From a virus, in the IMG/VR virus record IMGVR_UViG_3300002038_000006, positions 1-23,479 of that record: a stretch of DNA of 23,479 bases; one strand, given 5' to 3'. This document shows, in pieces, positions 1-15,904 of this stretch (positions are counted from its first letter, which is position 1; each line of letters starts with the position of its first letter). The translations under genes and the position numbers were made by a program. Under the pieces are notes generated by a model. It was given only the letters and a program-made list of their open reading frames with translations, had not been told where the DNA came from and searched no databases.

Positions 1-1020
1 AAATCAACTACTACTACCTATGGCACTAGTAGAACTACTAGTAAGAGCACGAGTACGGGCTGGACTACTAGCTATAATACTTCATTTAATACTAGTAAGA
101 CTACTACTACTACTTACGGTACTAGTAGAGTTACCGGCTTCAACACTAGTAAAACAACTACAACCGGCTACGTGACTAACTATGGTACTTCATTTAATAC
201 TAGCAAGTCTACGACTACTACATTTAGTACTAGTAGAAGTACTAGCTTTAGTACTTATAAGTCAACTACTACTAGCTACACTACTAGTTATACCACATCA
301 CGCGGTACTAGTAGGTCTACTACAACTACGTGGAATACCAGTAGAGGTACTGCATGGAATACAAATAGGGGCACCACCACTACCTACGGTACAAGTTGGA
401 CCACTGGTCATTCGACTAGTAAGTCTACTACAACTACGTGGAATACCAGTGGAAGTACTACATGGAACACTAGTAAAAGTACAACTACTAGCTACACTAC
501 TAGTTATACTACTAATCGTACTACTAGTAAGTCCACAAATACTTCATGGTTAACGGTACATGTAACCATTGCCTCTACTAGTAAATCAACTACTACTACC
601 TATGGCACTAGTAGAGGCACTAGTAGAGGCACTACAACTAACTGGACTACTCAAAGGGCTACGTCCTTTAATACGGTAGCGACTGTATTGACCGAGTATA
701 ACACATCTAGAAATACTAGTAAGTCTACGACTACTAGCTATAATACTAGTAGAAGTACTACCTATGGCACTAGCAAGTCCACGACTACTACTTACAGTAC
801 CGGTTGGAATACTAATAAGTCTACTACGACAACTTGGGGCACTGATATAACAACCTCATTTAATACTAGTAAAACCACTACTACTGTATTTAATACTAAC
901 GTATCAACTAGTAAATCAACGACTACTTCATGGACTACTAGTTATTTAACTGACACAGTTACTAGTAAAACCACTACTACTGTATTTAATACTAGTAGAA
1001 CTACTAGTAAGAGCACAGTG
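1..1020 (+). repeat. DNA-level imperfect repeats within fibre 1 (ACTAGT-rich)
   Basis: Exact duplications: 33 bp at 1-33 and 583-615; 28 bp at 315-342 and 423-450; 34 bp at 865-898 and 961-994. Confidence 0.85.
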
Positions 1021-2010
1021 ACTGAATGGTTATCTGGTAGAACCACTAATTATAATACCACCTTCGGTACATTAACTAGTTATACTACGTCCAGAACTAC
1101 CAGTACTGCGTTTGTTACTATACGTGAAACTGACCGCACTACCAGCCAGTCTACTACGACTAACTGGACTGTGTCTTCTACTACTAGTGTAGCGATGACT
1201 ACTCAGACTAACACAGTTTGGGGAACTCAACGTTCTACTGATGAAGGCCGAAGTGCAACGACCACCACTGCTTGGACTACGTCTTACAGCACAGATGTAC
1301 AAACAACTGCTTCTACAACTACAAACTGGATGACAGACTTCCAGCGTGTTACTGATGTTGATGCAGGTAAGACTACAACTACACATTGGTCTACGTCGAA
1401 AGCTACGCAAACTGATTTTGCAACTGCATACTCGACTAACGTCAATACTGTAAGGTTCACTCAGTCTAACTGGACTACTTTTACGAATACAATCAAAGAA
1501 GTTGGTGAGTTGGTTACGTCTAAGAGTACCGTTTGGGATACAACCCGTGAGACGAATAGTTCATTCACTACTTCAGGTGGACAAGCTGTTCTAACCGATA
1601 CTAGCTGGCAGACTGCTAAGTCTACGTTGACTGTATGGTCAACAAGTACAGTTGGTTCAGGTGGCACAACGTTGAATACTGATACGTTACGTAGCACTAC
1701 AACATCTTGGTCTACAACTGTTCAGACAACTACTACTGTTGCTGGCGACCGTCAGACTACGACTGCGTGGACTACAACGTTCTCTACTACAGCGGACATT
1801 ACGTACACTACCAATGCGGAATACATTACTCAGTGGAGTACTGCAAGACAGACAGATGTGTTGAACGCAACATCAATCTTGACGTCTACTTCTTGGAACA
1901 CAACTGATTACTACGGTGCAGAACGTACTACAAGTCAAGTGGATACAACCGCTTGGATTACTGGTACTGAACATCAAACTCAGTGGGTTACAAGTCGTAC
2001 TACTTCTTAA
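1..2010 (+). CDS. Thr/Ser-rich repetitive fibre-like protein 1 (5'-partial)
   Basis: The frame is open from base 1 (KSTTTTYGTSRTTSKSTSTGWTT...) to TAA at 2008-2010, so the GTG at 172 is not the true start. Repeats are T-S-[KR]-S-T-T-T-x-[WYF]-x-T, the same architecture as the anchored fibre at 3873. Confidence 0.8.
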   Translation, partial: KSTTTTYGTSRTTSKSTSTGWTTSYNTSFNTSKTTTTTYGTSRVTGFNTSKTTTTGYVTNYGTSFNTSKSTTTTFSTSRSTSFSTYKSTTTSYTTSYTTSRGTSRSTTTTWNTSRGTAWNTNRGTTTTYGTSWTTGHSTSKSTTTTWNTSGSTTWNTSKSTTTSYTTSYTTNRTTSKSTNTSWLTVHVTIASTSKSTTTTYGTSRGTSRGTTTNWTTQRATSFNTVATVLTEYNTSRNTSKSTTTSYNTSRSTTYGTSKSTTTTYSTGWNTNKSTTTTWGTDITTSFNTSKTTTTVFNTNVSTSKSTTTSWTTSYLTDTVTSKTTTTVFNTSRTTSKSTVTEWLSGRTTNYNTTFGTLTSYTTSRTTSTAFVTIRETDRTTSQSTTTNWTVSSTTSVAMTTQTNTVWGTQRSTDEGRSATTTTAWTTSYSTDVQTTASTTTNWMTDFQRVTDVDAGKTTTTHWSTSKATQTDFATAYSTNVNTVRFTQSNWTTFTNTIKEVGELVTSKSTVWDTTRETNSSFTTSGGQAVLTDTSWQTAKSTLTVWSTSTVGSGGTTLNTDTLRSTTTSWSTTVQTTTTVAGDRQTTTAWTTTFSTTADITYTTNAEYITQWSTARQTDVLNATSILTSTSWNTTDYYGAERTTSQVDTTAWITGTEHQTQWVTSRTTS

Positions 2011-2019
2011 TCTAAATAA

Positions 2020-2041
2020 GGGACTGGGGAAACTCAGTCCC
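2020..2041 (+). terminator. GAAA-loop hairpin with weak U-tail (attenuator or stabiliser)
   Basis: GGGACTGGG-GAAA-CTCAGTCCC just after the fibre 1 stop, followed only by ATGTT on the + strand. Confidence 0.55.
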
Positions 2042-2060
2042 ATGTTAAAGGATAGTTAAA

Positions 2061-2828
2061 TTGAATACTACAACAAGTAACCGTTACAATACCTTTGCTG
2101 CCATATGTGATGAGAGAAACGTTGAACTCATCGCTGACCATAAAAGCAATACTGGTATTAGTCGTAAAAGTAACGCGTTAATAATCGGGGAACTATTGGG
2201 GGGTATTATATTACTTCCTCAGTTATTAGGACTTCGACTGAAGAACTTGAATGCTGCACTTAACGATAATAGCCATGGCAATTCTATTGGCGAGTTAATA
2301 CCTGAAGCAGACCTTCCGGATAATGGAATGAAGTTGATGGTTATGCCTGAACTACTTGTCTTGGAGATTACACCTAAGTGTTGTAATCAAATCGTTGATT
2401 GGGCTGATGGTGAACCTTGTTTAGTTATACCCAAGGATGATACTCCACCAGAGTTGATTCAGGCGTTACACGCCACTGGGGACAACTTCACTATCCTACC
2501 AGTTGATTCTGATAAATCGGATTTACTACGTAGGTCCAAAGAAGTATTGTGCAGTACAGTCGATGGGTTAGCCATAGAAGCCATATGGTACAACAAACCT
2601 CTCTCCTTTATGATAGAAGGCAGGTCCCACGACGTAGGCCCGTTTAGACTGCTAAACATTCTCTTGTCCAATGATTGCGAGAATCGACATAAGCGTCTTA
2701 ACAATTTTCTGAACTCAGAGTTTGGTGGCTTCTTCTTACCCGGTAAGCAAGGACTTACTGAACTCCGAACATTCCTAGCGAAACACGAGGATAATCATGA
2801 AAGATTTACCAACCCACATCGCTCTTAA
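2061..2828 (+). CDS. Hypothetical protein, degenerate GT-B / KpsS-KpsC-like (capsule synthesis-like) domain
   Basis: AAGGA RBS and TTG start. DLLRRSKEVLCSTVDGLAIEAIWYNKPL resembles the GT-B C-terminal motif (LL..sd.v.t..S...iEA...gKPv). The usual upstream HP motif is not present. Overlaps the rSAM start by 32 nt. Confidence 0.5.
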   Translation: MNTTTSNRYNTFAAICDERNVELIADHKSNTGISRKSNALIIGELLGGIILLPQLLGLRLKNLNAALNDNSHGNSIGELIPEADLPDNGMKLMVMPELLVLEITPKCCNQIVDWADGEPCLVIPKDDTPPELIQALHATGDNFTILPVDSDKSDLLRRSKEVLCSTVDGLAIEAIWYNKPLSFMIEGRSHDVGPFRLLNILLSNDCENRHKRLNNFLNSEFGGFFLPGKQGLTELRTFLAKHEDNHERFTNPHRS

Positions 2829-3759
2829 CATGACCAGTGCCTGTAACATGGATTGCTCATATTGCTACATGGATAAATTAAATTCCGGTAAGCGTATGTC
2901 AAACCAAGTTCTTGACGGCGTCATTGAGATGATTAACAAAACCGATGACGGCCAACGATTCCAAGTTAGCTTCTTCGGCGGTGAACCTACTCTTGCTAGT
3001 CGTAGCATTGGGTACTTTATCGATAACGCAAACCTTGACAAAATCGAAGGTTTCTCATTAACTACTAACGGCACAAACATTGATGTTGTAAACCATGTTG
3101 CAAGACGTGGCTTTGAAATGACCAATGGTCGTATTATGACTAGGGTACTTGTATCTAACAAAGATGTACGTGCCCCTGCTGAAGAGCTTGACCTTGAAGT
3201 AGTTGCAAACTCTTACCGTTACATCGTTGGTGTCGATACCATTGATGAAGTTGACGAAGCATTAGTTACCGAACTTCTTGAAAGTGAATTCATTCAAGTT
3301 GACTTCCGTTTTGACTACTACGCCAACTGGGAAGAAGTTGACCAGACTAAGGTGAACCGTGTTATTGAAATGTTACGTACATTCCAGAATACAACCAACC
3401 GCCTTAAGTTCCAACCACCTAAGATACTTGAAGCTATGGTGCAGAAGAAATGTCCTGCTCCACACATGAGCATCGACACTGACGGCGGTATCATGCCTTG
3501 TCACCGTATGTTCAACAGTACTCGTGGTATCGGTATGTCTGTAGGTAATATCCTAGAAGATATGGATAGTGCGGTTGCTCAGTTAGCGAAGTTCCATTCC
3601 GAAGTTCACTTCAGTACTGGCTGTGTAGGCTTCACTGAAAACTTTGGTCAGGACAGCGACATTCACGTTCTTAACCTTGGTACTCTGAACTATGAAGACA
3701 AGAGTAGTAAGATGACAGAAGGCGTGCTACAAGCCGCTGGTGAAATGAGTTGTCGTTAA
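2797..3759 (+). CDS. Radical SAM protein with C-terminal twitch/SPASM-like region (anSME/peptide maturase-like)
   Basis: CNMDCSYC (CxxxCxxC), FFGGEP, TTNG, and C-terminal KCPAPHMSIDTDGGIMPCH (C...DG.i.PC). GAGGA RBS. Confidence 0.92.
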   Translation: MKDLPTHIALNMTSACNMDCSYCYMDKLNSGKRMSNQVLDGVIEMINKTDDGQRFQVSFFGGEPTLASRSIGYFIDNANLDKIEGFSLTTNGTNIDVVNHVARRGFEMTNGRIMTRVLVSNKDVRAPAEELDLEVVANSYRYIVGVDTIDEVDEALVTELLESEFIQVDFRFDYYANWEEVDQTKVNRVIEMLRTFQNTTNRLKFQPPKILEAMVQKKCPAPHMSIDTDGGIMPCHRMFNSTRGIGMSVGNILEDMDSAVAQLAKFHSEVHFSTGCVGFTENFGQDSDIHVLNLGTLNYEDKSSKMTEGVLQAAGEMSCR

Positions 3760-3790
3760 TTAGGTAATTCAAAAAATTACATTTATAGGA

Positions 3791-3814
3791 GGAGGGCGAG
3801 AGCTCTCCCCTTTT
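3791..3814 (+). terminator. Intrinsic terminator
   Basis: GGAGGGC-GAGA-GCTCTCC stem-loop followed by CCTTTT, downstream of the rSAM gene. Confidence 0.75.
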
Positions 3815-3872
3815 ATATGACCGGACGCGGTTAAATAGAAGATTCTAGAATGTTTTATAAGGATTAATCCCT

Positions 3873-6800
3873 ATGTCAATCGAACCTATTATTAAATATC
3901 CGTTCGATAGTACAGCTGAGTCACCGACGAATTATTTCCAAAATGAGAGTCACGTGATTGAGCCGGATGGGCAAAAGACAATAGTGGTAAGGGCAGGTCC
4001 CTTCTACAGCGATAAGCTTATTGTTCACACCCCATCGTCTATCGAACCTCTTGTACGTGGTGATGATTACCATGTAAAGTATCTTTTCGAAGATGCGACA
4101 TTGAAGACAGGTAAAGAAGTTCACATAGCCATTTCAATGGTTGACCCTAACTGGCACGGAGAGTTATTAATCTCTGGTCAAGTTGTGGGTGGTGACTACT
4201 CTCACCTGTATCCGACGGTTGTAGATATAGTAAATGAGATTCGCAAGAATTACGAAACAGTAAGTTATCATGACCTTGAAGACTTACCTACCGCTTTCCC
4301 ACCTGTAAGCCATCCACATGACGTCAATGACTTGACTAACATGGATGAATTGATTGCTGCTATTAAAGAGAACAGTCAAAGCTTAGCTGGTACGTTGTTG
4401 TTTAACCAACGACCTTTGGAACGCATCGTAGCCCAAGCAGTTTCACGTACTGACCGTTTACAACGTCAGCCATTTGAAGGTTCTACCTACGTTGGCAGAC
4501 ACACTGGTCCCCTGACATTTATAATGCCGGGTACGCAAACTCACAATTCTAACTTTGTTGCTCGCATCCAAGTTCAGAACCATGAAAGCTTTGAAGTCTT
4601 AACTGTCTCTGGTCAAGAGAACATCGAGTTAATCGAAAAGGTTAAGGTACATGGCGATTCGGATTACGATGTAGATATATATCGCGATAAGAACATGCGT
4701 ATCTGTGTCTCGATGGGTGACGACGCTACCGAGTGGATAGATGCTACTGTTGCAATCGACAGTATTATGTGGAGTGTAGATGACCCCGTATATCGTGAAG
4801 TTCCTTTACGTTGGTCACATCTATCGATAGACACGTTGAAAACACGTGAACCTACCCACATGGAAAAAATTCTTGTTGTTGGTGCACAGACCAAGAATAA
4901 GATGTATGGATATAGTGATGGTATTTTACCTAACTTCCCAGTAGTAGCGCAAGTTATGTCTCTTGATGAGCCTACTGAAGAAGAAACTCGTCTAAGAGAA
5001 ATCGAAGCGGGACTAAGCTTACTTGAACCAGCATCTTTTGGTACACTAACAAGACCTGAAATTGAAGGTGCAGCAATCCGTCAATGGGTTAGCTTAACTG
5101 ACGATAGCGGTACTAATACGATACTTCGTGTTGCGACTATTCCTGAGGGGATGATTGATGACATGGATAACTCAATGCGTTGGGTACTTCGTGTTAATGA
5201 CCTAGACGGTTATGTCTACAGTGAGCCGGGTACTATTTTATCCGATGGTTCTGTAGCATGGCGTTTTGCAGGTTCTGAATTAGCTGATTGGCATTACTGG
5301 GAATTCGGTAGAGCGATACAAGAACGTCTTGAGTTGGCTAAAGTTCCAATGCACGCACTTGACAGTATCACTAAACCTGAAGAGCTTGACCCGTACATTC
5401 ACAATGTTGTTCCTACGTGGGGCACTATTTGGGATACGGACTACGGTACTACTTACTCTACCACTGAGTACGAGAAAGAGAATACTGCATGGCTTACACA
5501 CTCAGGTCCTGAAGCTACAACTCAGCGCAGCACTAATTGGTCTACTAGTTTACTTACGAGTAAAACTACTACCATTGCGGGTGATGGAGATTACCAGACT
5601 CTGTGGACAACCACTAAGTCAACCTCTACTACCTACAACACTGGTTACAATACCAACACTTCTCGTAGTACTTCTAAGTCTACGTCAACTACTTGGTCTA
5701 CCGGTACTGGTAAAACAACCAATCGTAATACGTCGAAGTCAACGACTACGGCATGGACAACCTCTTACTCGACTACCAAGTCGCGTAATACAAATGCTGG
5801 AACACAAACCAATTGGACCACTTCTAAGTCTACCACTAAGTCGCATACCACAACGGTTAGCACAGGTGGAACTAAGACAACTAGTAAGAGTACAACGACT
5901 AGTTACGGAACCAACTATGGTACTAACTTCAATACGAGTTACAGTACCAGTAAGTCAACGACAACTGTCTTCGGAACAAGTAAGTCTACAACCACTACCT
6001 ACAATACTGGTTATGGTTCAAACTACACTACTAGTTACAATACAAGTCGTTCGACAAGCACAGGTTGGACAACGTCGCACGCGACTACCAAGTCAACTAC
6101 GACAAGCTATCAAGCATCTCGTAATACTACGTACAGTAAGTCAACCACTAAAGTTGCGTCTCGTAGTACCAGTACCAGTTACAACACTAGCTGGAGTACT
6201 TCTCATAGTACATCTATTGGTACATCTAAGACGACTACAACCACATGGTCTACTTCGCATTCTAAGTCTACTACTAAGTCAACTACGAAACCTCGCAGTA
6301 CTTCAGTTAATACGACTAAGTCTACAAGTAAGACAACCAGTTGGACAACCAGTTATTTAACTGTAATTGGTAGTGCTTTCGTACCACTACCCGTTCTACT
6401 AGTGGTACAACTACTTGGAACTACACTGGTTCTACTAACCGTAATACCTCTTACTCTGCGAACACCACCTATAATACTTCTTGGAATGCAAATACCAATA
6501 GAAGTACAACTACGGGATGGACAAGTAATTACAACACGAGTTACAACACTAGTAAGGCCACTTCTAGGTCTACCACTACATCGTGGAATTACAGTGCAAC
6601 TACTTCTTGGGATGTCAGTACTAGTTACGCGGCTTCTAAGAATACGACAACGGGTTATAACACTAGTTATGACACAGCACGTTCAACTACTACTAGCTGG
6701 ACAACCAACCACACAACTAGTGGTGGTGTTACCAAGTCTACGTCGCATAGTACAAACACTGGGTGGAATACTAGTAAAGCTACAAGTACTGTTTGGAACA

Positions 6801-7169
6801 CGTCACGCACAACCAGTAAAGCTACATCGCACACTACAAGTAAATCTACAACTACTAGTTTCAATACTGGCATTACAGGTAATACTTCTTGGACGACTAG
6901 CTACAGTGCTAACACAAGTTACACAACTGGCAAATCAACCACGACAACATGGGCGACTAACTACTCAGGTTCTACGTCACGAGGCACGAACAAGTCTACT
7001 AATACTGCATGGTCAACTAGTTACCAAACTGGTATTACCAAGAATACTAGTAGAAATACAACTACAACGTATACAACTACGTTTAGTACTGTTACTGCTG
7101 TGGCAACTAGTAAGAACACAAACACTGCTTACCAAACATCTCGTACGACAACAGGCTTCAGTAATGTAA
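3873..7169 (+). CDS. Virion fibre protein 2, N-terminal part: phiKZ gp131-family-like anchor domain, middle domain, then Thr/Ser repeats (authentic frame ends ~6379)
   Basis: N-terminal motifs YPFD.T...N....E.H, GPFY, L.RG.DY, GK.V, VGGDY and P..FPP..HPH are typical of phiKZ-like tail/fibre proteins. T/S repeats begin at ~5410. After 6380 this frame becomes an out-of-frame Leu/Val-rich read-through. Confidence 0.8.
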   Translation: MSIEPIIKYPFDSTAESPTNYFQNESHVIEPDGQKTIVVRAGPFYSDKLIVHTPSSIEPLVRGDDYHVKYLFEDATLKTGKEVHIAISMVDPNWHGELLISGQVVGGDYSHLYPTVVDIVNEIRKNYETVSYHDLEDLPTAFPPVSHPHDVNDLTNMDELIAAIKENSQSLAGTLLFNQRPLERIVAQAVSRTDRLQRQPFEGSTYVGRHTGPLTFIMPGTQTHNSNFVARIQVQNHESFEVLTVSGQENIELIEKVKVHGDSDYDVDIYRDKNMRICVSMGDDATEWIDATVAIDSIMWSVDDPVYREVPLRWSHLSIDTLKTREPTHMEKILVVGAQTKNKMYGYSDGILPNFPVVAQVMSLDEPTEEETRLREIEAGLSLLEPASFGTLTRPEIEGAAIRQWVSLTDDSGTNTILRVATIPEGMIDDMDNSMRWVLRVNDLDGYVYSEPGTILSDGSVAWRFAGSELADWHYWEFGRAIQERLELAKVPMHALDSITKPEELDPYIHNVVPTWGTIWDTDYGTTYSTTEYEKENTAWLTHSGPEATTQRSTNWSTSLLTSKTTTIAGDGDYQTLWTTTKSTSTTYNTGYNTNTSRSTSKSTSTTWSTGTGKTTNRNTSKSTTTAWTTSYSTTKSRNTNAGTQTNWTTSKSTTKSHTTTVSTGGTKTTSKSTTTSYGTNYGTNFNTSYSTSKSTTTVFGTSKSTTTTYNTGYGSNYTTSYNTSRSTSTGWTTSHATTKSTTTSYQASRNTTYSKSTTKVASRSTSTSYNTSWSTSHSTSIGTSKTTTTTWSTSHSKSTTKSTTKPRSTSVNTTKSTSKTTSWTTSYLTVIGSAFVPLPVLLVVQLLGTTLVLLTVIPLTLRTPPIILLGMQIPIEVQLRDGQVITTRVTTLVRPLLGLPLHRGITVQLLLGMSVLVTRLLRIRQRVITLVMTQHVQLLLAGQPTTQLVVVLPSLRRIVQTLGGILVKLQVLFGTRHAQPVKLHRTLQVNLQLLVSILALQVILLGRLATVLTQVTQLANQPRQHGRLTTQVLRHEARTSLLILHGQLVTKLVLPRILVEIQLQRIQLRLVLLLLWQLVRTQTLLTKHLVRQQASVM

Positions 7170-8368
7170 GCGTCGACAGATTGACGGAACAAGTAACGTC
7201 TGTGGCTACTACTGGTGAGAAATTGACTACATGGTCAACGACTCGTAGTACAAGCGGTGAAAGAGTTGCACAAACTACTACAAGCTGGTCTACGGACTAT
7301 GTGGATGGTACGTCTTGGACAACATCTCGCATTACTAATGTTGGGACAAGTAGAACAACTAACACAACTGTTGACACTTCAGCAACTACCACACTTACTA
7401 CCGATAGTACTTTCGAGACTTCTTGGGAAACAAATGTGGATACAAGTATTTCAACATCAGCTACTACGACAACCTCGTGGAACACTGTACGTGAAACATC
7501 TTGGTTAACTGCTAAGACTACAGTGACTGTATTCTCTACAGTGGTTGAAGGTGTAACTAGAGAGACCATAACTTCTTGGACTTCTGACTTCACTACTTCA
7601 CACAGCACAAGTATTAATACAAGTGCTACAACCACAACAACTTGGACTACTAATGGCGGTGCTACTCGTACGACAACGGCGGATACAACAACAAGTGGTT
7701 CAGTAACAACGACAACGACATGGGCAACTAACGTGTCTACACAGACTCAATGGTCTACTGCGGCGAATACTAGCTGGACAACCGGCATGAATACAACGCA
7801 TACTAAGACTACCTCTGGGTCTACAGCTACTAGCTGGACAAGTTCGCATGTTACTAGTTTCAATACAAGTGTACTTACTGACATTCAATGGCAGACTAAC
7901 AAACATACTCGTTGGAACACTTCAATTACTACTACAGTACAAACAGGTGCTACTATTACTACTAAGTGGGAAACTCAGGCTTCTACAGCTGGACAAACAC
8001 TTATGGCATTACGTAACACTACTACGGCAAATGTTACTAACGTATCTACGTCTTGGACTACCCAAGCTACTACGTCACATAACACTTCTCGTGGTACAAC
8101 AGTAAGTTGGCAAACAGCTGACGCTAATGACCCTACCGCTACGGTAACGACAAGCGCAGATGTGAGCACTTCTTGGTCTGAAGAGTCCGAGGTTTCTGTT
8201 ACTACAAGTAGTTCGTACATGACGGCTGTTGAGCAAGAGTTCTTAACGGAGCACACGCAAGACACCGATTGGTACACCAACATTAATACTGATGTTCTTA
8301 CTACTAAGACATCGTCTGTATTGACAGCGGTTACTACATCTCGTGATACGAGTTGGCAAGGCACTTAA
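6374..8368 (+). CDS. Virion fibre protein 2, C-terminal Thr/Ser-rich part (-1 frame continuation; joined product ~1498 aa)
   Basis: The frame of ORF 7100..8368 is stop-free back to TAG at 6371-6373 and reads RTTTRSTSGTTTWNYTGSTNRNTSY..., continuing the repeats seamlessly. Confidence 0.8.
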   Translation, partial: CFRTTTRSTSGTTTWNYTGSTNRNTSYSANTTYNTSWNANTNRSTTTGWTSNYNTSYNTSKATSRSTTTSWNYSATTSWDVSTSYAASKNTTTGYNTSYDTARSTTTSWTTNHTTSGGVTKSTSHSTNTGWNTSKATSTVWNTSRTTSKATSHTTSKSTTTSFNTGITGNTSWTTSYSANTSYTTGKSTTTTWATNYSGSTSRGTNKSTNTAWSTSYQTGITKNTSRNTTTTYTTTFSTVTAVATSKNTNTAYQTSRTTTGFSNVSVDRLTEQVTSVATTGEKLTTWSTTRSTSGERVAQTTTSWSTDYVDGTSWTTSRITNVGTSRTTNTTVDTSATTTLTTDSTFETSWETNVDTSISTSATTTTSWNTVRETSWLTAKTTVTVFSTVVEGVTRETITSWTSDFTTSHSTSINTSATTTTTWTTNGGATRTTTADTTTSGSVTTTTTWATNVSTQTQWSTAANTSWTTGMNTTHTKTTSGSTATSWTSSHVTSFNTSVLTDIQWQTNKHTRWNTSITTTVQTGATITTKWETQASTAGQTLMALRNTTTANVTNVSTSWTTQATTSHNTSRGTTVSWQTADANDPTATVTTSADVSTSWSEESEVSVTTSSSYMTAVEQEFLTEHTQDTDWYTNINTDVLTTKTSSVLTAVTTSRDTSWQGT

Positions 8369-8386
8369 TTGTTAACGGCATAATCT

Positions 8387-8417
8387 AGGGGGGGCTTCGG
8401 CTCTCCCTTTATTTTTT
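8387..8417 (+). terminator. Intrinsic terminator
   Basis: AGGGGGGGC-TTCG-GCTCTCCCT followed by TTATTTTTT. Confidence 0.9.
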
Positions 8418-8448
8418 CTTTAGGTATGATAACTAAGAGGAAGATACA

Positions 8449-9036
8449 ATGAAAACTAGAAATCAAATCATTGAAGACACTGTCCGTCTGAAAGAGAAAG
8501 GCTATGCTAATCTCAAGAACGATAGTGGGGGTGAAACAATGTGGGGTATCACTACTGGTATTGCTGAGAAGTATAAGAACCTATGGGATAAATATGGGTT
8601 CACTGGCGATATGAAATCTATGCCTCTAGCTTTGGCGTATGAGATATATGCAATTGCTTATTGGGATGAGATGTATCTTGATGAGATATTGAAGATATCA
8701 CCTATGTTAGCTGAAGAGATATTCGACACTGGAGTTAACTGTGGACCTAAGAACCCACAGGAGTGGCTACAACGCTGTCTGAACGTCTTAAATAAACAGG
8801 GGTCTCATTATTCGGATATTGTAGTTGATGGCGACACAGGGCCTGCTACGGTCTCTGCGCTGCAAGGACTGTACAACAAACGCGGTACTGAGGGAATGAT
8901 GGTATTATTTTCAATGCTTAACGGTTTCCAAAGCGTATACTACGTTGAAATAGCTGAAAATAAAGAGACCTTGGAAGATTTCGAGTACGGCTGGCAAAGA
9001 AGTAGGGTGTTCCAGAACTTAGCTGGTAATTTATAA
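8449..9036 (+). CDS. Endolysin, glycoside hydrolase family 108 with C-terminal peptidoglycan-binding domain
   Basis: EKGY...ND.GGET.WGIT catalytic motif, FDTGVNCG, and LQRCLN...VDG.TGP.T. GAGGA RBS. Confidence 0.92.
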   Translation: MKTRNQIIEDTVRLKEKGYANLKNDSGGETMWGITTGIAEKYKNLWDKYGFTGDMKSMPLALAYEIYAIAYWDEMYLDEILKISPMLAEEIFDTGVNCGPKNPQEWLQRCLNVLNKQGSHYSDIVVDGDTGPATVSALQGLYNKRGTEGMMVLFSMLNGFQSVYYVEIAENKETLEDFEYGWQRSRVFQNLAGNL

Positions 9037-9040
9037 AGAC

Positions 9041-9075
9041 AAAAAAATAAAGGAGGGCACTAAGCCCTCCGTTAT
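9041..9075. terminator. Bidirectional terminator between convergent genes
   Basis: GGAGGGC-ACTAA-GCCCTCC with an A-tract on the left (U-tail for the - strand). Confidence 0.85.
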
Positions 9076-9081
9076 GTCCGC

Positions 9082-9696
9082 CTACTGTTCTGCGTAACCT
9101 TTAGCCCTACCGTTTTCAATGATGTACAATTCCTTCATTACTAGGATGTACACATATCTACTAAGGACAAGACATGCAGTTGTTAAGGCTACCCCGATTA
9201 TGGTAGGTACACTATAGAGAACCATTAATCCACCGATACCACCTAAGGTTACAGCACTTAAAGCATTTATCCTACCCCGCAGTAAAGAGAACTCACCACA
9301 GGATTTAATGACCTGAGAGTTGTTCTTATCACGCAAAGGTGTAATAACTGATTTAGTTGCCATCATTAACCCAAGGCTAGCCAATAATATCGTATCAGGA
9401 TAGATGTCCCATTCGGTTAACCAGAAACCTAGGATACACAATATCTCTATTGCTACAATCCAAGTATAGGAACGAACGGGATTCTTAATCACGTATCTAC
9501 TTAACCCCGGTAACAGAACAGCTAACCCCAATACAGGAGTCATCCAATCTTTTATCGCCAGTCCTTTCTCCCCAAAGGTAGAGGAGAGAAGACCAACGGT
9601 TATTGAGATTAAGAATACGTAAGTAGACTTCGATAGAAATTCGTAAGTAAGGTAATACTTCCTTAACTTACTTAGCTGTCGCAAGCTCGTTATCAT
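9082..9696 (-). CDS. Multi-pass membrane protein, unknown function
   Basis: 204 aa with about 5-6 hydrophobic segments. GAGG RBS. Confidence 0.8.
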   Translation of the reverse strand: MITSLRQLSKLRKYYLTYEFLSKSTYVFLISITVGLLSSTFGEKGLAIKDWMTPVLGLAVLLPGLSRYVIKNPVRSYTWIVAIEILCILGFWLTEWDIYPDTILLASLGLMMATKSVITPLRDKNNSQVIKSCGEFSLLRGRINALSAVTLGGIGGLMVLYSVPTIIGVALTTACLVLSRYVYILVMKELYIIENGRAKGYAEQ

Positions 9697-11025: not shown

Positions 11026-11092
11026 GCTCTTCCCTTGGATTCGGCGGTCGCAATCAATTCAGAAAACAACACTGGTTTTAAATCCCAGTGGT

Positions 11093-11428
11093 CTATCGCT
11101 TTTTAGCATTAGTGATATATTTCCTTAAATCCCTAACGCCCTTAGCATGTAGTTTACTACACCTTTTGGGACTTAAGCCATAGTTATTTATGGCAGCGGA
11201 TAATCTAATCCAGTTATTTCCATCTAGGATATATTTAACCCTACCGCCTTCGACCCGCTCTCTGTCATAAGGGATTACTTCACAGTAGTGTTCAACTAAG
11301 TGATGCATCTTTATTTTCTTCTCACAACAGTGGTTACCGGGTATGTTAGTAATCTTAGCAACGTGATGGTTATCCACCAGTTCTTTCATTCTACCTAACC
11401 AGTAAGAGGTCATCGTCTCTTTATTCAA
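11093..11428 (-). CDS. Hypothetical protein (possibly the 3' part of a decayed gene starting at 11553)
   Basis: 111 aa ORF with a weak start. The frame continues upstream through a single TAG at 11483-11485. Confidence 0.55.
   Translation of the reverse strand: MNKETMTSYWLGRMKELVDNHHVAKITNIPGNHCCEKKIKMHHLVEHYCEVIPYDRERVEGGRVKYILDGNNWIRLSAAINNYGLSPKRCSKLHAKGVRDLRKYITNAKKR
11111..11122 (-). promoter_or_regulatory. Possible phiKZ-type early promoter (TATATCAC)
   Basis: AAATATATCACT on the - strand ~85 nt upstream of the 11025 gene. It resembles the phiKZ early consensus TATATTAC; a similar ATATATCATC lies at 21391-21400. Confidence 0.3.
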
Positions 11429-11616
11429 TAGTGCATGGTGATAAGCAACTAGTCCACCGCAGTATCTTCCACCGTTGATAAACTATCGAACATACCCTGC
11501 TAAATCATCATCTGGGCTACCAAATGTAAAGGCTCGTTCTTAACTATAATCATTTCGTAAATTCCTGCAACAGGTTCTATATTAAAAACGTCCTGTGTAA
11601 AAATAGTATAGACGGC

Positions 11617-11646
11617 AAAAAGAACTACTCCCACAAGGAGAGTAGT
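11617..11646 (-). terminator. Intrinsic terminator
   Basis: On the - strand ACTACTCTCC-TTGT-GGGAGTAGT followed by TCTTTTTGCCG. Confidence 0.75.
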
Positions 11647-11791
11647 CTAAAGGGGAATATACAATGAAACCTAATAAAAGGAAGTCAGCATCAAACACAT
11701 CACAAGTGAAGCTCGCCTTCTAACCAAAGTCTGGACCCGACTCCGTCTAATGGTTATAGTTCGAGAAAGTTATCTACTAACATATAATAGG

Positions 11792-12418
11792 TTATGGTTG
11801 ACTATTAAAACATAGCTCTTCTTGTTGACGAATAGATTCTACCATGTAGGTATCACCATCCCCTACCAACAACCTATTTCTCTCTTGTACCTCTTTAATT
11901 CTTTTTGCGCACCCATAATACTTAACAATTACTTGCTGAAGTTTATTTCCGTCCACATCGTCAAAGTAGGTAACTCCTTCTACCGTATCATCTTCAAAAA
12001 CTCCCTTTGAATGAAATTGCAGAGTCTGAAACTCTGTACTAAAATATACCGAGCCTAAAAATCGAGCAGGTATAGTTAACAAGGCTATTCGGAAACAACT
12101 TTCCAAAGAGGCAATCATTTTGTAAATATTATCGGGCCTTACGTTAGCTCTTGCCAGAACTGTCTGTAATCGTCTCACAATCCTATCAGGAACTAGTTCG
12201 TCATCTAACAGGGGAGTAAGTCGGGCAATCACATACTTGCAGAGAATGCGCATTAAGACAACGTTAACCTTCTCGTCATCGTAACACAAGCGTCCACGTA
12301 CATTGAATATAACCGTCTGACCTCGGTCGAACATTAGTTCCGATAATGGATTGTCTTCGCAATTTGCCCATTCATCTTCGAGAGGGTTAATCCCTCTTCG
12401 CTTACCGGGTACAATCAT
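11792..12418 (-). CDS. Hypothetical protein
   Basis: 208 aa ORF with GAGG RBS and no recognisable motif. Confidence 0.8.
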   Translation of the reverse strand: MIVPGKRRGINPLEDEWANCEDNPLSELMFDRGQTVIFNVRGRLCYDDEKVNVVLMRILCKYVIARLTPLLDDELVPDRIVRRLQTVLARANVRPDNIYKMIASLESCFRIALLTIPARFLGSVYFSTEFQTLQFHSKGVFEDDTVEGVTYFDDVDGNKLQQVIVKYYGCAKRIKEVQERNRLLVGDGDTYMVESIRQQEELCFNSQP

Positions 12419-12516
12419 TCAGTTACCTCTGCTGGTTCTAGAAAAACACACTTACACAAACTTACAACTTAATAGTTCTATATCAAGACGTTGGTGTGTA
12501 ATTTTTATTCAGCGGC

Positions 12517-12540
12517 ATAAAAGGACTCTTACGAGTCCTT
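12517..12540 (-). terminator. Intrinsic terminator
   Basis: AAGGACTC-GTAA-GAGTCCTT then TTATGCCG on the - strand, right after the holin stop. Confidence 0.8.
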
Positions 12541-12557
12541 GTAGTATATGCTTAAGA

Positions 12558-13217
12558 TTACATTCTAAGTATTTTCTTGGTAATGACACTACCGATAGAA
12601 CCACCTAGAGTACTCTTGGGTTCTGTAGGAGCACCTACCTGAGCATTAGCCCTTGCACGCTTATCTTCACTTCTGTCGAAGAAGTAAGACCTGATGACCC
12701 AAATAGGGAAACCTAGTATTACACTCCACGAAGTATAGTCAGGTAACAAAGTTCTCAATGCTGTTAATTCTGCTGCTGTACCAACACCCATGCTGTCAGA
12801 CTTAAAAGCTTCCATCACAGACTTGGCTATAAACCAATTAGAGTAGATAGCTGCACCCAAACCAACAACAACCAACAATGCCATTAGGATAACTACCACT
12901 GGTCTTACCCAACCATAGCCTTTATCTGCCTGCATCATTGCTAAGCGTAACTTAACAGTGTTGTCATCAATGTGTGCTTCATGCTTAAGCTTCTCTATCT
13001 CCTTCGCGACTTCACTTTGAATAATGATAGCCTTCGTTTCTGGCGGGAGACCTTTGACTGCCTTAGCAACTTCTTCGCCCGTTGCCTTTTTCGGGTCGAG
13101 TCGTTTATCTGGTTCGACGAATTCATTTACCTTCTCAATTAATTTATCACCAAGTGACGGTATGACCGCACCTAGTACTGCTTTACCTACTGTTCCTAGT
13201 ATCGTTAGGAGGCCCAT
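12558..13217 (-). CDS. Putative holin (GTA 3TM holin-like family)
   Basis: Amphipathic N-terminus, coiled region, W-V-R-P before a TM helix, and C-terminal YFF.RS.DK, matching the WRP...YFG.RS.EK pattern. The ATG at 13217 has a GAGGG RBS (the track starts at 13241). Confidence 0.65.
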   Translation of the reverse strand: MGLLTILGTVGKAVLGAVIPSLGDKLIEKVNEFVEPDKRLDPKKATGEEVAKAVKGLPPETKAIIIQSEVAKEIEKLKHEAHIDDNTVKLRLAMMQADKGYGWVRPVVVILMALLVVVGLGAAIYSNWFIAKSVMEAFKSDSMGVGTAAELTALRTLLPDYTSWSVILGFPIWVIRSYFFDRSEDKRARANAQVGAPTEPKSTLGGSIGSVITKKILRM

Positions 13218-14058
13218 TCCAGTACCCTCTTCGTATTGCATCAGATAGTGCTAACTTAATAGCCTGATGTTCGTTTAAAAGTTCAGAGCCAATTGAAGTG
13301 TATCCCAACTTAGCCCCCCATAACTTACCGTCACCACCACTAAAGGTGTATCCGTACTCGATAAGTTTATCATACACGGTGTCTAAGTGAACGGTGGTGT
13401 AGCCGTGAGAACCGTAATACGTTACCAACTCATTCACTATAACAATAGCGAGAGGAGAAGCTTTGATAGTAGCCTCTGTAAGCATCTGTATGACCTCGTC
13501 GTAGACTTCTTTCTCAGATGCTTCCGATGATACCACAATTGTAAAAGGATTGTTCTCCGCGCACTCTAGGAAGCGTTCACGCACTTCTTGTTGATACGTT
13601 TTACCTTTTAGTTCAATATTGTCACGTTCACGGTCACCAATACGTTCATCGGCTATATCCACATCAACATCTACAAGTATAATGATGTCAGGAGTAACTA
13701 TGTCTACGTGCAACTGGTTAAATAACTGACGCTGCTGTTGACCATCCACCTGATATGCTTCACTACACATCAAACATCTATCCGACACTACATGCTTATC
13801 GGCAAGTAGTGCTGGTTTAATTAATTCGTTCTGCATAGAGTCTCTAGCAGTATAGATTAATAATAGTTGTTGTTTGAGGGTTAGGTTGGCATCTTTATTT
13901 TCAAGAATGAGTTCACGAATAGCATCCGCTGTGGGAGTTCCCGAGTATTCATGTACTTCAACTATTTCTTTTGGTTGATTTTGTTCCAACCACGATTTTA
14001 CGGCACGAGAGGCTGTGGTCTTGCCACAGCCATCTATGCCACTTAAGGCTATGTACAT
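13183..14058 (-). CDS. tmk: Thymidylate kinase with ~95 aa C-terminal extension
   Basis: P-loop GIDGCGKTT, LL..ARD, VVSDR...SEAYQ, PDIIILVDVD, and RD.IE lid. Confidence 0.92.
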   Translation of the reverse strand: MYIALSGIDGCGKTTASRAVKSWLEQNQPKEIVEVHEYSGTPTADAIRELILENKDANLTLKQQLLLIYTARDSMQNELIKPALLADKHVVSDRCLMCSEAYQVDGQQQRQLFNQLHVDIVTPDIIILVDVDVDIADERIGDRERDNIELKGKTYQQEVRERFLECAENNPFTIVVSSEASEKEVYDEVIQMLTEATIKASPLAIVIVNELVTYYGSHGYTTVHLDTVYDKLIEYGYTFSGGDGKLWGAKLGYTSIGSELLNEHQAIKLALSDAIRRGYWNGPPNDTRNSR

Positions 14059-14072
14059 TTTACTTTCCCTTG

Positions 14073-14438
14073 TTAGACAGAGTGATGATTAGACAACAAA
14101 TGAGGGTGTCCAGTAAATATTTCCCCATCGCTATCTTTAATCCATTCCCAGCCTGTTGGAGTTACTACAATGTATCCACAATGACGCATTGAGTATAACC
14201 CACGTATACAGTGTGTGCCGAAAGGAAGAGACCGGTCGTGAAAGTGTTCTTTGTAACCATGTGCTTTATAGAAAGCAAATACGTCACCAACACTATTCTC
14301 GTTGAGCTCTAACCACTTGTCAGGGTTTATGTGAAACACTGCTACATCATCGTGCTCAGGATGACGTCGTGGCTCTTCCTTACCCGCTAAAGGTAATCCA
14401 GTTAATATATTTGCGTGTGCTAAATGAATTTTACTCAT
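14073..14438 (-). CDS. Hypothetical protein
   Basis: ORF between ruvC and tmk. The ATG at 14438 avoids overlap (the track starts at TTG 14501). Confidence 0.7.
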   Translation of the reverse strand: MSKIHLAHANILTGLPLAGKEEPRRHPEHDDVAVFHINPDKWLELNENSVGDVFAFYKAHGYKEHFHDRSLPFGTHCIRGLYSMRHCGYIVVTPTGWEWIKDSDGEIFTGHPHLLSNHHSV

Positions 14439-14457
14439 ACCTACAAACTGCTCTTTA

Positions 14458-15027
14458 TTATAAGTTTTTATTAAAGAGTCTATCGATTTTCCAATATCCA
14501 ACGGCTACGGCATCTGCCGCATGTTCAGACAGATAATCGAGAAGTGTAACCGTGTCGGCATCGTAGACCACGTTCGGCAACCTTTTAATAGCCGCCATTA
14601 CTTCTTCTTTATCTTTGGACTTACCACTTACCCCTACTGCCTTTTTAGCACTGGGTGGGTCAACATGGTCAAAGTCGACCAGTATGTTGTACTTGATAGC
14701 TGCTTTACGAATTCCACTAACAGCTTCAACTAGAGCTGCATAACTGTTAGGGAACCTACCTAAGAAAGGAGCCTCATGTACAATCGAATGAGGTCCCCAT
14801 CGATTGAAGAATTCCAACAAGTATTCTTCATGGTAACAAAGCTTGGCTGTTCGTAGTCCAAAGTGAGAGATAACTTCCGGAAACTTATTAGAGCCAGCTA
14901 CTGCATCAATTGTTTCAGCGTAACGAATGTGGATACGGCCAGTAGATAGACATACGTCCAATACTGCTATACCCAACTTATCTAACGCGGGGTCAATTGA
15001 GACCACTCTATAGAAGTTATCTTCCAT
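14458..15027 (-). CDS. ruvC: RuvC-like Holliday junction resolvase
   Basis: SIDP...LG, HE.PF, P..AKKAV.......K..V, and H.ADAVAVG catalytic motifs. Confidence 0.9.
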   Translation of the reverse strand: MEDNFYRVVSIDPALDKLGIAVLDVCLSTGRIHIRYAETIDAVAGSNKFPEVISHFGLRTAKLCYHEEYLLEFFNRWGPHSIVHEAPFLGRFPNSYAALVEAVSGIRKAAIKYNILVDFDHVDPPSAKKAVGVSGKSKDKEEVMAAIKRLPNVVYDADTVTLLDYLSEHAADAVAVGYWKIDRLFNKNL

Positions 15028-15040
15028 TTTATTTACCTTA

Positions 15041-15904
15041 TTAAACTACTGGAGTACCACTAGAGTTAGTATCAACAGCTAACGGTTCAGATGCACCCAA
15101 GTCAATCTTCAGATTGAAACCATTGTTAGCAAATGCCATAGGGTACATACAAGCAACGAATACAGCTACTTGAACACCACGAGCTTCTAACATCGAGTAA
15201 GGGTTACCTGATACAGGCTGAACGTTAATGTTCGTGTCCTGACCACTACAGATACCAATTTCGGATACTACAGCGTAAGCTTCGTCATTATGACGGATAC
15301 GACAAACTTGTTTAAGGTTTTCTGCATCTGTAGCATTGAAGTCGATTTCAAATGTAGTGCTAACTGAAAGAGTTTCACCAGTACCTTCCGTAACACCTTC
15401 TGCTGCTATTTCAACAGGAGTAGGGTTTAGGTCAGACTGAGTAGGTTGGAAGTTGATTGTGTCAGTTCCATTTTCAGTAACTACTGTGTGTTCGTAAACA
15501 ATCGGTTGTTGTCCACTACCTACACGCTTCATGTAGTAACAGTAGTAGTCTACACCATTGAATGGCTCAACTGTACGTAAAGCATACTTAGTACGTTCGT
15601 TATCGTCTAAGTCATTGTCCAACTCACGCATTACAAATGGTAAGTGTTTGAACAAGGCTGCGTCACGCGCACGGTGAGGACGAGATTGAACTAATGCTTG
15701 ACCATCGGCACCAGAATAGTTCTTGTGTCCACCACGACCGATTACATAGTAACCTAGCGTAGGGTTCTCATCAGGGTTCTCAGTAGCAAGTACGTTGAAC
15801 TTCTCGTTGAGGGTTGTATGTTGCTGTATAACGTGCTCACCGTTATTAAACATAGCTGTTTGTAAACCATTGCCATAAATGGTACGTTTAGTTGAAAGAG
15901 ACAT
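15041..15904 (-). CDS. Virion structural protein (phiKZ gp127-like)
   Basis: 287 aa with TTLNEKF, IG.GGH, H...DAALF.HLPFV.R...DL and SEIG.CSG, recognised from phiKZ-like structural proteins. TAATG coupling with the upstream gene. Confidence 0.7.
   Translation of the reverse strand: MSLSTKRTIYGNGLQTAMFNNGEHVIQQHTTLNEKFNVLATENPDENPTLGYYVIGRGGHKNYSGADGQALVQSRPHRARDAALFKHLPFVMRELDNDLDDNERTKYALRTVEPFNGVDYYCYYMKRVGSGQQPIVYEHTVVTENGTDTINFQPTQSDLNPTPVEIAAEGVTEGTGETLSVSTTFEIDFNATDAENLKQVCRIRHNDEAYAVVSEIGICSGQDTNINVQPVSGNPYSMLEARGVQVAVFVACMYPMAFANNGFNLKIDLGASEPLAVDTNSSGTPVV

Follow-up and report, generated by a model that had tools for sequence, protein, structure and literature searches.

A candidate tail-fibre maturation cassette with a radical SAM enzyme and a transferase-like protein in a marine phiKZ-like phage

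We analysed the first 23.5 kb (23,479 nucleotides; hereafter the window) of the 218,099-bp IMG/VR virus record IMGVR_UViG_3300002038_000006; base 1 of the window is the start of the contig. Its first third holds, in this order, the Thr/Ser-rich fibre 1, a hairpin, the gene of a protein that we call P0002, an overlapping gene for a radical S-adenosylmethionine (SAM) enzyme, a terminator, and the Thr/Ser-rich fibre 2 with an anchor of the phiKZ gp131 type (Table 1). With a probability that we put at roughly 0.55, this locus is a tail-fibre maturation cassette to which a clade-specific radical SAM enzyme and a pseudo-transferase have been added.

In the mechanism that we propose, both baseplate fibres are most likely O-glycosylated. 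Glycosylation would be carried out by P0129, a transferase-like protein with an HP motif that is encoded elsewhere in the genome, together with a GT8 glycosyltransferase, fed by phage-encoded KdsD and KdsB. P0002, the second transferase-like copy, has stayed at the canonical position directly after fibre 1; it has lost the His of the HP motif and a conserved Glu and gained four invariant Cys, and its translation has come to be coupled to that of a short radical SAM enzyme with, probably, a single auxiliary cluster. It would now act as the fibre-binding (acceptor-recognition) subunit, and the radical SAM enzyme would modify the fibre or its glycan in a reaction initiated by hydrogen abstraction. 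Such an additional, clade-specific maturation step, in which P0002 supplies recognition and its partner the chemistry, appears to be the most economical model. Candidate reactions are oxidation, formation of an ether or C-C bond involving Thr, Ser or aromatic residues, and a change to the glycan. We infer fibre glycosylation, a complex of the two proteins and the fibre as their substrate from gene order, homologies, motif loss, co-transcription signals and co-occurrence. [quoted passage not shown]

Thr/Ser-rich fibres and their partner family

Apart from the two fibre genes, no gene of the 218-kb genome is Thr/Ser-rich. The open frame at 1-2010 consists of 38% Thr and 15.5% Ser, with neither Cys nor Pro. 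Across the repeat regions of both fibres, Thr makes up 33-38%, Ser 14-22% and Trp, Tyr and Phe together 9-10%; the Cys count is 0, and Pro accounts for 0-0.4% in the window and at most 1.1% in close relatives. Thr stands at positions -2 and +2 of 69-92% of the aromatic residues, 69-88% of the aromatic residues are followed by x-Thr, and Thr lies two residues after 85-94% of Lys, Arg and His. Since aromatic and basic residues both obey the x-Thr rule, the repeat unit is T-x-Z-x with Z aromatic or basic, and it is arranged in superperiods of 14, 18, 32 and 36 residues. Tandem Repeats Finder reported periods of 54 and 108 nt within 66-533 only (62-77% match); the DNA-level repeats are old. We propose that the distal 600-900 residues of both fibres form a Thr/Ser-rich beta-type repeat. 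A mucin-like, disordered structure is unlikely, given the scarcity of Pro, the aromatic content and the strict two-residue alternation.

Residues 1 to ~165 of fibre 2 match phrog_2163 (3e-43) and the N-termini of phiKZ gp131 and gp133 (BLASTP, 2e-15 and 2e-10), which bears out, at the level of sequence homology, the earlier claim that fibre 2 starts with a phiKZ-type virion anchor. In phiKZ, N-terminal domains of the gp131 type dock fibres to the periphery of the baseplate (PMC13250141). Fibre 1 has no gp131-like domain and is preceded by two proteins, one of 119-153 amino acids (aa) and one of 362 aa, which carry Mtd_N-like motifs. The gp131-type anchor and the nearby portal homologue support the assignment of the locus as a virion tail-fibre module.

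We scanned IMG/VR for the peptide K-[ST]-TTTTWNT and obtained 34 stretches in about 28 mostly small contigs. Nearly all of the motif-bearing open reading frames (ORFs) span several hundred to about 1900 aa; a few are cut by the end of the stretch, and they often lie two in tandem. In 32 of 33 ORFs, Thr accounts for 40-49% and aromatic residues for 8-12%, and the aromatic-x-Thr fraction is 0.72-0.96; the outlier (L118, 282 aa) has 28% Thr and a fraction of 0.21. A homologue of P0002 and P0129 of ~300 aa is located directly 3' of the Thr/Ser-rich ORF in 20 stretches from 19 contigs, mostly at a distance of -3 to 108 nt (1020 nt in three cases). Three stretches had enough downstream DNA yet no homologue, and two of the three came from contigs with a homologue after another fibre gene. 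A hidden Markov model (HMM) of this family gave 0 matches in 1.15 Mb of control phage loci. All fibre-adjacent homologues carry YFKPHPITTH and HISESA, as does P0129; KPHP is present in P0129 and in 11 of 11 fibre-adjacent homologues. The family corresponds to phrog_26179, annotated 'unknown function', and its neighbours include genes for KdsA-like (DAHP_synth_1, 1e-63), GT4 and GT25 proteins. At the IMG/VR loci L102-L135 (for example L112:2279-8344, L109:6-7295 and L127:4732-9579), one or two giant fibres are followed by a phrog_26179 protein, often with KdsA-like, GT4, GT25 or methyltransferase genes. This arrangement, which is widespread in small, non-jumbo phages, is probably an unannotated fibre-glycosylation module.

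The genome of the window itself encodes a KdsD-like protein with SIS and CBS domains, a KdsB-like cytidylyltransferase (CTP_transf_3) and a GT8 protein adjoined by P0129, a 282-aa protein with the KPHP motif. Judged by homology, these four may form a partial phage-encoded set for the supply and transfer of cytidine monophosphate-activated Kdo (CMP-Kdo). The look-alikes of P0129 in the ESM Atlas are large viral clusters, with Capsule_synth as the nearest named family (0.91). A PDB profile search with the HP-type alignment gave no match, and neither did the EarP and Capsule_synth HMMs in the window's genome.

Taken together, in at least two phage lineages this fibre type has the HP-motif transferase-like family as its constant partner, in the company of glycan genes. 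Because members of the family follow the same fibre type in 19 unrelated contigs beside glycan genes, there is good reason, from genome context, to infer that such fibres are glycosylated. The first-pass annotation had proposed that the phage post-translationally modifies a virion appendage. Glycosylation gains support from these 19 contigs; cross-linking does not, as the aromatic-x-Thr register persists in phages without a radical SAM gene.

[quoted passage not shown] On that explanation the radical SAM enzyme would join the aromatic ring to the Thr beta-carbon in each aromatic-x-Thr unit of the fibres, as in triceptides, and the 69-88% figure does conform formally to the omega1-X2-X3 pattern (PMC11499958). 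However, the same register (0.72-0.96) occurs in the ~28 phage contigs without a nearby radical SAM gene, and the basic residues follow the same rule (85-94%), as expected of a general T-x-Z-x repeat. Moreover, the enzyme reaches only 30-43 bits with the triceptide (cyclophane) synthase models XyeB, YhhB, GrrM/OscB and AmcB, whose cut-offs are 310-445, and the two-cluster SPASM motif is absent from it. Since the register is equally strict without the enzyme, it seems to be a property of the fibre fold and not a triceptide-type substrate signature, and we give stapling of this kind the least credence of all explanations considered here.

P0002 and the radical SAM enzyme

P0002 aligns with P0129 (hhalign 94%, E 1.2e-7), and the P0002 family aligns with the HP-type family (98%, E 1.7e-13, 242 columns). 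By these profile comparisons, P0002 appears to be a divergent paralogue of the ~300-aa HP-motif GT-B-like family. GT-B enzymes are built from two Rossmann-like domains, the C-terminal one of which holds the nucleotide-sugar site. In a structure comparison of the AlphaFold model, residues 78-194 of P0002 matched GT-B C-domains at Z 7-10.3. The top match was UDP-N-acetylglucosamine 2-epimerase (Z 10.3); others were polysialyltransferase, PseG, KrkA, KpsC, WbbB and POFUT1/2, with the Kdo transferases at Z 7.4-8.5. Searches of the ESM Atlas pointed to EarP-type protein glycosyltransferases by features (0.91) and to GT-B families only by structure (TM score about 0.5). The earlier description of P0002 as GT-B-like is thus backed by a predicted fold and by features. 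The family is small: three representative clusters were found among 1.84 billion proteins.

In the P0002 family, the position of the HP-motif His is occupied by Lys, Met, Arg or Thr and that of the conserved Glu by Gly, Ala, Lys or Ser. Four Cys (C16, C107, C108 and C120) are invariant and new in P0002. Because residues conserved in the HP-motif homologues have been lost, P0002 is probably not the glycosylating enzyme, which weakens the first-pass annotation on this point. Its N-terminal region still aligns with the HP-type homologues; in KpsC, acceptor specificity resides in the N-terminal domain (PMC10148158).

The radical SAM enzyme passes the Pfam model Radical_SAM (PF04055) with 41.1 bits (cut-off 29.5). 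The CxxxCxxC motif (C16/C20/C23) and GGEP (G61-G62-E63-P64) are invariant in 10 homologues, as are four further Cys (C219-x10-G-x4-C235, C276 and the penultimate C319), which makes seven in all. SPASM domains have a seven-to-eight-Cys motif that binds two auxiliary 4Fe-4S clusters, and twitch domains are truncated SPASM domains with a single auxiliary cluster. The enzyme gave no match to the SPASM models (PF13186 / TIGR04085). As the SPASM HMM is unmatched and only four auxiliary Cys are present, the enzyme likely carries one auxiliary cluster and may be twitch-like. The Cys count fits this type; the AlphaFold model of the C-terminal third has a predicted local distance difference test score (pLDDT) of <50.

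Only 10 close homologues were found among 5.8 billion proteins, all with at least 62% identity. The best named family is PapB (NF047865), at 88 bits against a cut-off of 340, and QhpD is among the nearest named families; the best solved relatives are CteB and anSME. The nearest long-coverage proteins outside the clade are PapB-like (22-26% identity). By sequence the nearest named families are thus peptide- or protein-modifying enzymes, which we count in favour of the maturation model. Membership of the PapB family itself, whose substrates contain Cys in motifs of the CxxxD/E type, is not indicated, given the score, the Cys-free fibres and the lack of a small Cys-rich ORF; the cassette contains no small precursor ORF either. 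Because the fibres contain no Cys, thioether formation on them is excluded.

A second branch of the subfamily occurs in Fusobacterium phage phiKSUM (OR492276, L021) and in two IMG/VR contigs (L022, L023), all of them rumen and oral Fusobacterium phages. Its members are 27-29% identical over the full length, share the C-terminal Cys and score 89-93 bits with the clade HMM, compared with at most 58 bits for 78 other phage radical SAM loci. The gene lies 9 nt after that of a 1340-2030-aa tail protein; at the phiKSUM locus (26677-33587) it encodes 269 aa. We tried the 224-aa protein 3' of the phiKSUM gene as a relative of P0002 and found it unrelated. Outside the clade, the subfamily appears in Fusobacterium phages only, so that it has been found twice within tail modules beside giant tail proteins. 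The phiKSUM-type loci may be a second case of tail-protein maturation by an enzyme of this type.

Two further explanations divide the labour between the enzymes differently. P0002 might be an active glycosyltransferase with an altered donor or mechanism that O-glycosylates the fibres, with the radical SAM enzyme tailoring the sugar or the nucleotide-sugar donor by oxidation, dehydration, epimerisation or methylation. This would agree with the GT-B-like core of P0002, the constant position of its homologues after such fibres, the Cys set for a single auxiliary cluster and the CMP-Kdo-pathway enzymes supplied by the genome; twitch-type enzymes such as BtrN act on carbohydrate-like substrates. 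P0002, however, lacks the His and Glu that are invariant in 12 HP-type homologues, and the best matches of the radical SAM enzyme are peptide and protein maturases, not sugar modifiers. We regard an active P0002 as rather unlikely.

Alternatively, P0002 could itself be the substrate and receive Cys-to-Asp/Glu thioether staples, as QhpC does from QhpD and PapA from PapB, to yield a stapled fibre-associated protein or chaperone. The nearest radical SAM families form Cys thioethers, among the conserved proteins of the block only P0002 bears Cys, and its four invariant Cys were gained beside invariant Asp/Glu residues (CC..D, C..D) as the transferase residues were lost; the two genes are also translationally coupled. 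Nevertheless, P0002 is a 255-aa folded alpha/beta protein unlike the known substrates, its Cys motif is not repeated, and its four Cys might just as well be ligands of a metal or an iron-sulfur cluster. Stapling of P0002 therefore strikes us as improbable.

Conservation of the cassette and its genome setting

All elements of the layout described in the first-pass annotation were recovered, among them the two overlapping, co-oriented enzyme genes between the Thr/Ser-rich genes, the hairpin without a U-tail that links fibre 1 to them and the terminator at ~3810, which consists of a hairpin followed by a T-run; CCTTTTATAT lies directly 3' of this hairpin. In addition, the contig start truncates fibre 1, and fibre 2 contains a frame switch.

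Every one of the ~10 contigs with the radical SAM gene, which come from related marine jumbo phages, has the complete block of fibre 1, P0002, the radical SAM enzyme and fibre 2. The block is conserved down to 62% identity of the radical SAM enzyme and 45% of P0002, with a constant 32-nt overlap. In the outgroup L016, by comparison, fibre 1 has only 330 aa and leads directly into the same terminator-plus-leader intergenic region as in the clade and then into fibre 2, whose N-terminal domain is 45% identical to that of the window. In the L016 fibres, Thr and Trp are scarcer than in those of the clade, and the pattern is less regular. Seen against L016, the clade thus carries an insertion of the hairpin, P0002 and the radical SAM gene 5' of the terminator of fibre 1, and its fibre 1 is much longer. 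As the pair comes after the stop codon of fibre 1 and ahead of the terminator of that gene, it would be expressed with fibre 1, and gene order supports co-transcription.

Both intergenic hairpins are kept in 7 relatives; their stem sequences differ, and compensatory changes preserve the pairing. The hairpin after fibre 1 has no T-tail on the + strand; placed as it is between fibre 1 and the enzyme genes, it may serve as an attenuator or as an RNA-stability element. The small hairpin and the leader 5' of fibre 2 are also present in L016. The 30-nt leader TTCTAGAAT...TATAAGGA... (window 3843-3872; L016:7965-7994) is kept even in this distant outgroup and is likely a late promoter or translation-leader element of these phages.

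Absence of the pair at the syntenic L016 site, together with the flanking hairpins and the orphan status of both families, which have no characterised member, would suit an accessory (moron-like) cassette that acts on the host envelope, a metabolite or another phage protein and whose position is incidental. Against this, the pair has no upstream terminator of its own and is part of the transcription unit of fibre 1; a second phage lineage shows P0002 homologues linked to Thr/Ser-rich fibres, and in a third the radical SAM subfamily is again found inside a tail module. We consider an incidental cassette unlikely.

Several observations nevertheless weigh against the maturation cassette. P0002 has no significant match among Pfam, PHROG, NCBIfam and PDB profiles, its sub-significant listings being E 0.075 (NCBIfam), E at least 0.083 (PDB) and E 0.02 (one Pfam member); for its GT-B assignment there are about 115 residues matched at Z 7-10, together with features from a language model. 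The AlphaFold model of P0002, built on a 7-sequence alignment, is poor overall (pLDDT 50; 70-83 at residues 88-180), as is that of the radical SAM enzyme (pLDDT 48; alignment of 10 sequences). The radical SAM families nearest to the enzyme form Cys thioethers, yet the fibres have no Cys. Synteny within the clade reflects shared ancestry and is not independent evidence. No radical SAM gene was detected in any of the 34 K-[ST]-TTTTWNT stretches, and P0002 and the radical SAM gene are absent from the L016 site and from the rest of its 148-kb fragment. As L016 and all small phages with such fibres lack the enzyme, the radical step seems not to be needed to build such a fibre. In the Fusobacterium phages, the giant tail protein is not Thr/Ser-rich and there is no P0002-like partner. 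The proposal that enzymes and fibres co-occur is consequently upheld for P0002 homologues, which follow Thr/Ser-rich fibres in 20 stretches; it does not extend to the radical SAM enzyme, which also stands beside a tail protein of another composition, or to the L016 fibres, which lack the pair.

Table 1. Features of the window and related genes. Positions refer to the window unless marked as genome coordinates.
Feature	Position	Strand	Remarks
Thr/Ser-rich fibre 1, C-terminal 669 codons	1-2010	+	18/36-residue repeats of T-x-(aromatic or basic)-x quartets
Conserved hairpin 3' of fibre 1 stop, no U-tail	2020-2041	+	22 nt; stem kept in 7 relatives
P0002, 255 aa, TTG start, putative degenerate GT-B-like protein	2061-2828	+	
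Radical SAM enzyme, 320 aa	2797-3759	+	32-nt overlap with P0002
Terminator-like hairpin and T-run	3791-3818 (hairpin 3791-3808)	+	closes the fibre 1/P0002/radical SAM unit
Second small hairpin (3819-3832) and conserved leader (3843-3872), 5' of fibre 2	3819-3872	+	
gp131-like N-terminal baseplate-anchor domain, fibre 2	3873-4370	+	
Conserved non-repetitive middle region, fibre 2 (residues ~167-560)	4371-5552	+	no family match
Thr/Ser-rich region, part 1, fibre 2	5553-6385	+	frame 0
Frame switch 0 to 2 (-1)	6374-6385	+	private to the record
Thr/Ser-rich region, part 2, fibre 2	6374-8368	+	frame 2; 664 codons
Strong intrinsic terminator 3' of fibre 2	8387-8408	+	
GH108 endolysin	8449-9036		
Thymidylate kinase-like gene	13183-14058		phrog_761
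RuvC-like resolvase	14458-15027		phrog_159
Conserved phiKZ-type protein	15904-17976		phrog_3222
phiKZ gp129 portal homologue	18010-20646		
P0129 and GT8; KdsD-like and KdsB-like pair	genome 107601-109430 and 121789-123640		L013

In this record, fibre 2 is split over two frames: frame 0 covers 3873 to ~6385, frame 2 covers 6374-8368, and beyond ~6385 frame 0 reads an out-of-frame tail rich in Leu, Val and Gln up to 7169. In all relatives, including those with 92% and 85% identical radical SAM enzymes, fibre 2 is a single intact ORF of 1391-1687 aa. The switch falls within a hypervariable centre (5996-6733) that cannot be aligned with the closest relatives. We considered a programmed -1 frameshift at GCT-TTC-G (6374-6385) and set it aside as the default interpretation in view of the intact ORFs of the 85% and 92% relatives and the unalignable repeat DNA; more probably, the switch is a private mutation or results from an assembly error. 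In the related contig L002, both fibres (6138-9215 and 11075-15469) contain mid-repeat a near-identical segment of ~45 residues around ...WTFWGEDWDGAGG..., which suggests recombination between the two fibre genes, and the frameshift in the window is located at the corresponding place. In L016, the last ~117 codons of fibre 2 (L016:11782-12135) are out of frame after a stop, and the gene looks interrupted.

The 39-bp 'direct terminal repeat' of the record (window 1-39 = genome 218061-218099) falls within the fibre 1 repeats, and fibre 1 therefore spans both contig ends. Its upstream part is at 216435-218099 of the same record, with the gene start near 216.5 kb, and joining the ends leaves the frame open for 1211 codons. 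This repeat is the basis for classing the record as complete or circular; several related contigs also terminate within fibre genes. The repeat is possibly an artefact of assembly, and the length of fibre 1 may be mis-estimated.

By its markers, the phage is clearly a marine phiKZ-like giant (jumbo) phage. The portal homologue has 29% identity (E 1e-96) to phiKZ gp129, which is the phiKZ portal (PMC13250141), and the window also contains matches to phrog_3222 and phrog_3004 (E about 1e-180 to 1e-190). The nearest relatives come from marine metagenomes, one of them being a Tara Oceans contig. A metagenome scan returned duplicates only, and searches against cultured phages gave no match, either with the window by megablast or with P0002 and the fibre 1 tail by tblastn.

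Comparison with known systems

In this analysis we connect P0002 with the HP-motif family, describe the co-occurrence of that family with Thr/Ser-rich fibres in 19 small-phage contigs and the loss of residues and gain of Cys in P0002, and report the radical SAM branch of Fusobacterium phages. If the reading as a maturation cassette is true, T-x-aromatic-x fibres with phrog_26179 would be a common fibre-glycosylation module, possibly using Kdo, with a bearing on host recognition, on the shielding of fibres from proteases or receptors, and on the annotation of many marine phages. A radical SAM enzyme acting on a structural protein of a phage would represent a type of virion maturation not found in the searchable literature. 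More tentatively, a catalytically dead glycosyltransferase may have been recruited as the recognition subunit of a radical SAM enzyme, the pair placing a covalent radical modification on glycosylated fibres of >1000 residues, that is, RiPP-type chemistry with a new recognition element. A pseudo-glycosyltransferase in the role of targeting subunit of a radical SAM enzyme would solve substrate recognition in a new way, different from that of RiPP recognition element (RRE) domains.

The nearest experimental precedent is virion glycosylation in mycobacteriophages (Freeman et al. 2023, as cited in PMC12801897). There, as proposed here, phage-encoded glycosyltransferases reportedly decorate Ser/Thr-rich stretches of the structural proteins of the phage itself. 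In that account the targets are C-termini of capsid and tail-tube proteins, the enzymes are ordinary glycosyltransferases and glycosylation was found by experiment, whereas our targets would be fibres of >1000 aa, the presumed enzymes are of the phrog_26179 HP-motif type with an implied Kdo pathway, and the system is described from its genomic context.

The HP motif and the atypical GT-B-like character recall KpsC/KpsS (GT107), WbbB (GT99) and KrkA, retaining beta-Kdo glycosyltransferases that use CMP-Kdo. The model of P0002 resembles KrkA, KpsC and WbbB (Z 7.4-8.5), viral Capsule_synth clusters are among the look-alikes of P0129, and Kdo-pathway genes occur in the same genomes. In the beta-Kdo enzymes, the HP-motif His protonates the CMP leaving group and an invariant QXXXD motif provides the Asp nucleophile (PMC10148158). 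In contrast, we found no match at the sequence level, and P0002 lacks the HP His and the Glu as well. The segment equivalent to QXXXD, aligned to KpsC by eye only, reads PGSNK in the HP-type proteins, PGTNL in P0129 and PEL in P0002. Assignment of the phage proteins to GT107 was rejected, as the QXXXD nucleophile motif is not visible in any phage member.

The sequence families nearest to the radical SAM enzyme are PapB/PapA, QhpD/QhpC, CteB/SCIFF and anSME. QhpD and anSME modify whole proteins, and PapB-type enzymes, like the enzyme of the window, have no N-terminal RRE. Unlike these thioether maturases, it stays far below the family cut-offs (88 against 340 bits), its four auxiliary Cys are not the SPASM set, and the fibres are free of Cys. 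Triceptide RiPPs, which contain three-residue cyclophanes, share with our system an aromatic-x-X3 motif repeated many times in the putative substrate and a radical SAM maturase. They differ in that our motif persists in phages without the gene, the enzyme is no member of their maturases by score or Cys motif, and a giant structural protein would serve as substrate.

The fibres are comparable with phiKZ gp131, gp133, gp134 and gp135, which have a homologous N-terminal docking domain and genes near those for portal and endolysin (PMC13250141). In phiKZ, however, a beta-propeller or other globular domain makes up the distal part, whereas in our phage this part is a 900-aa Thr/Ser-rich repeat, with enzyme genes between the fibre genes.

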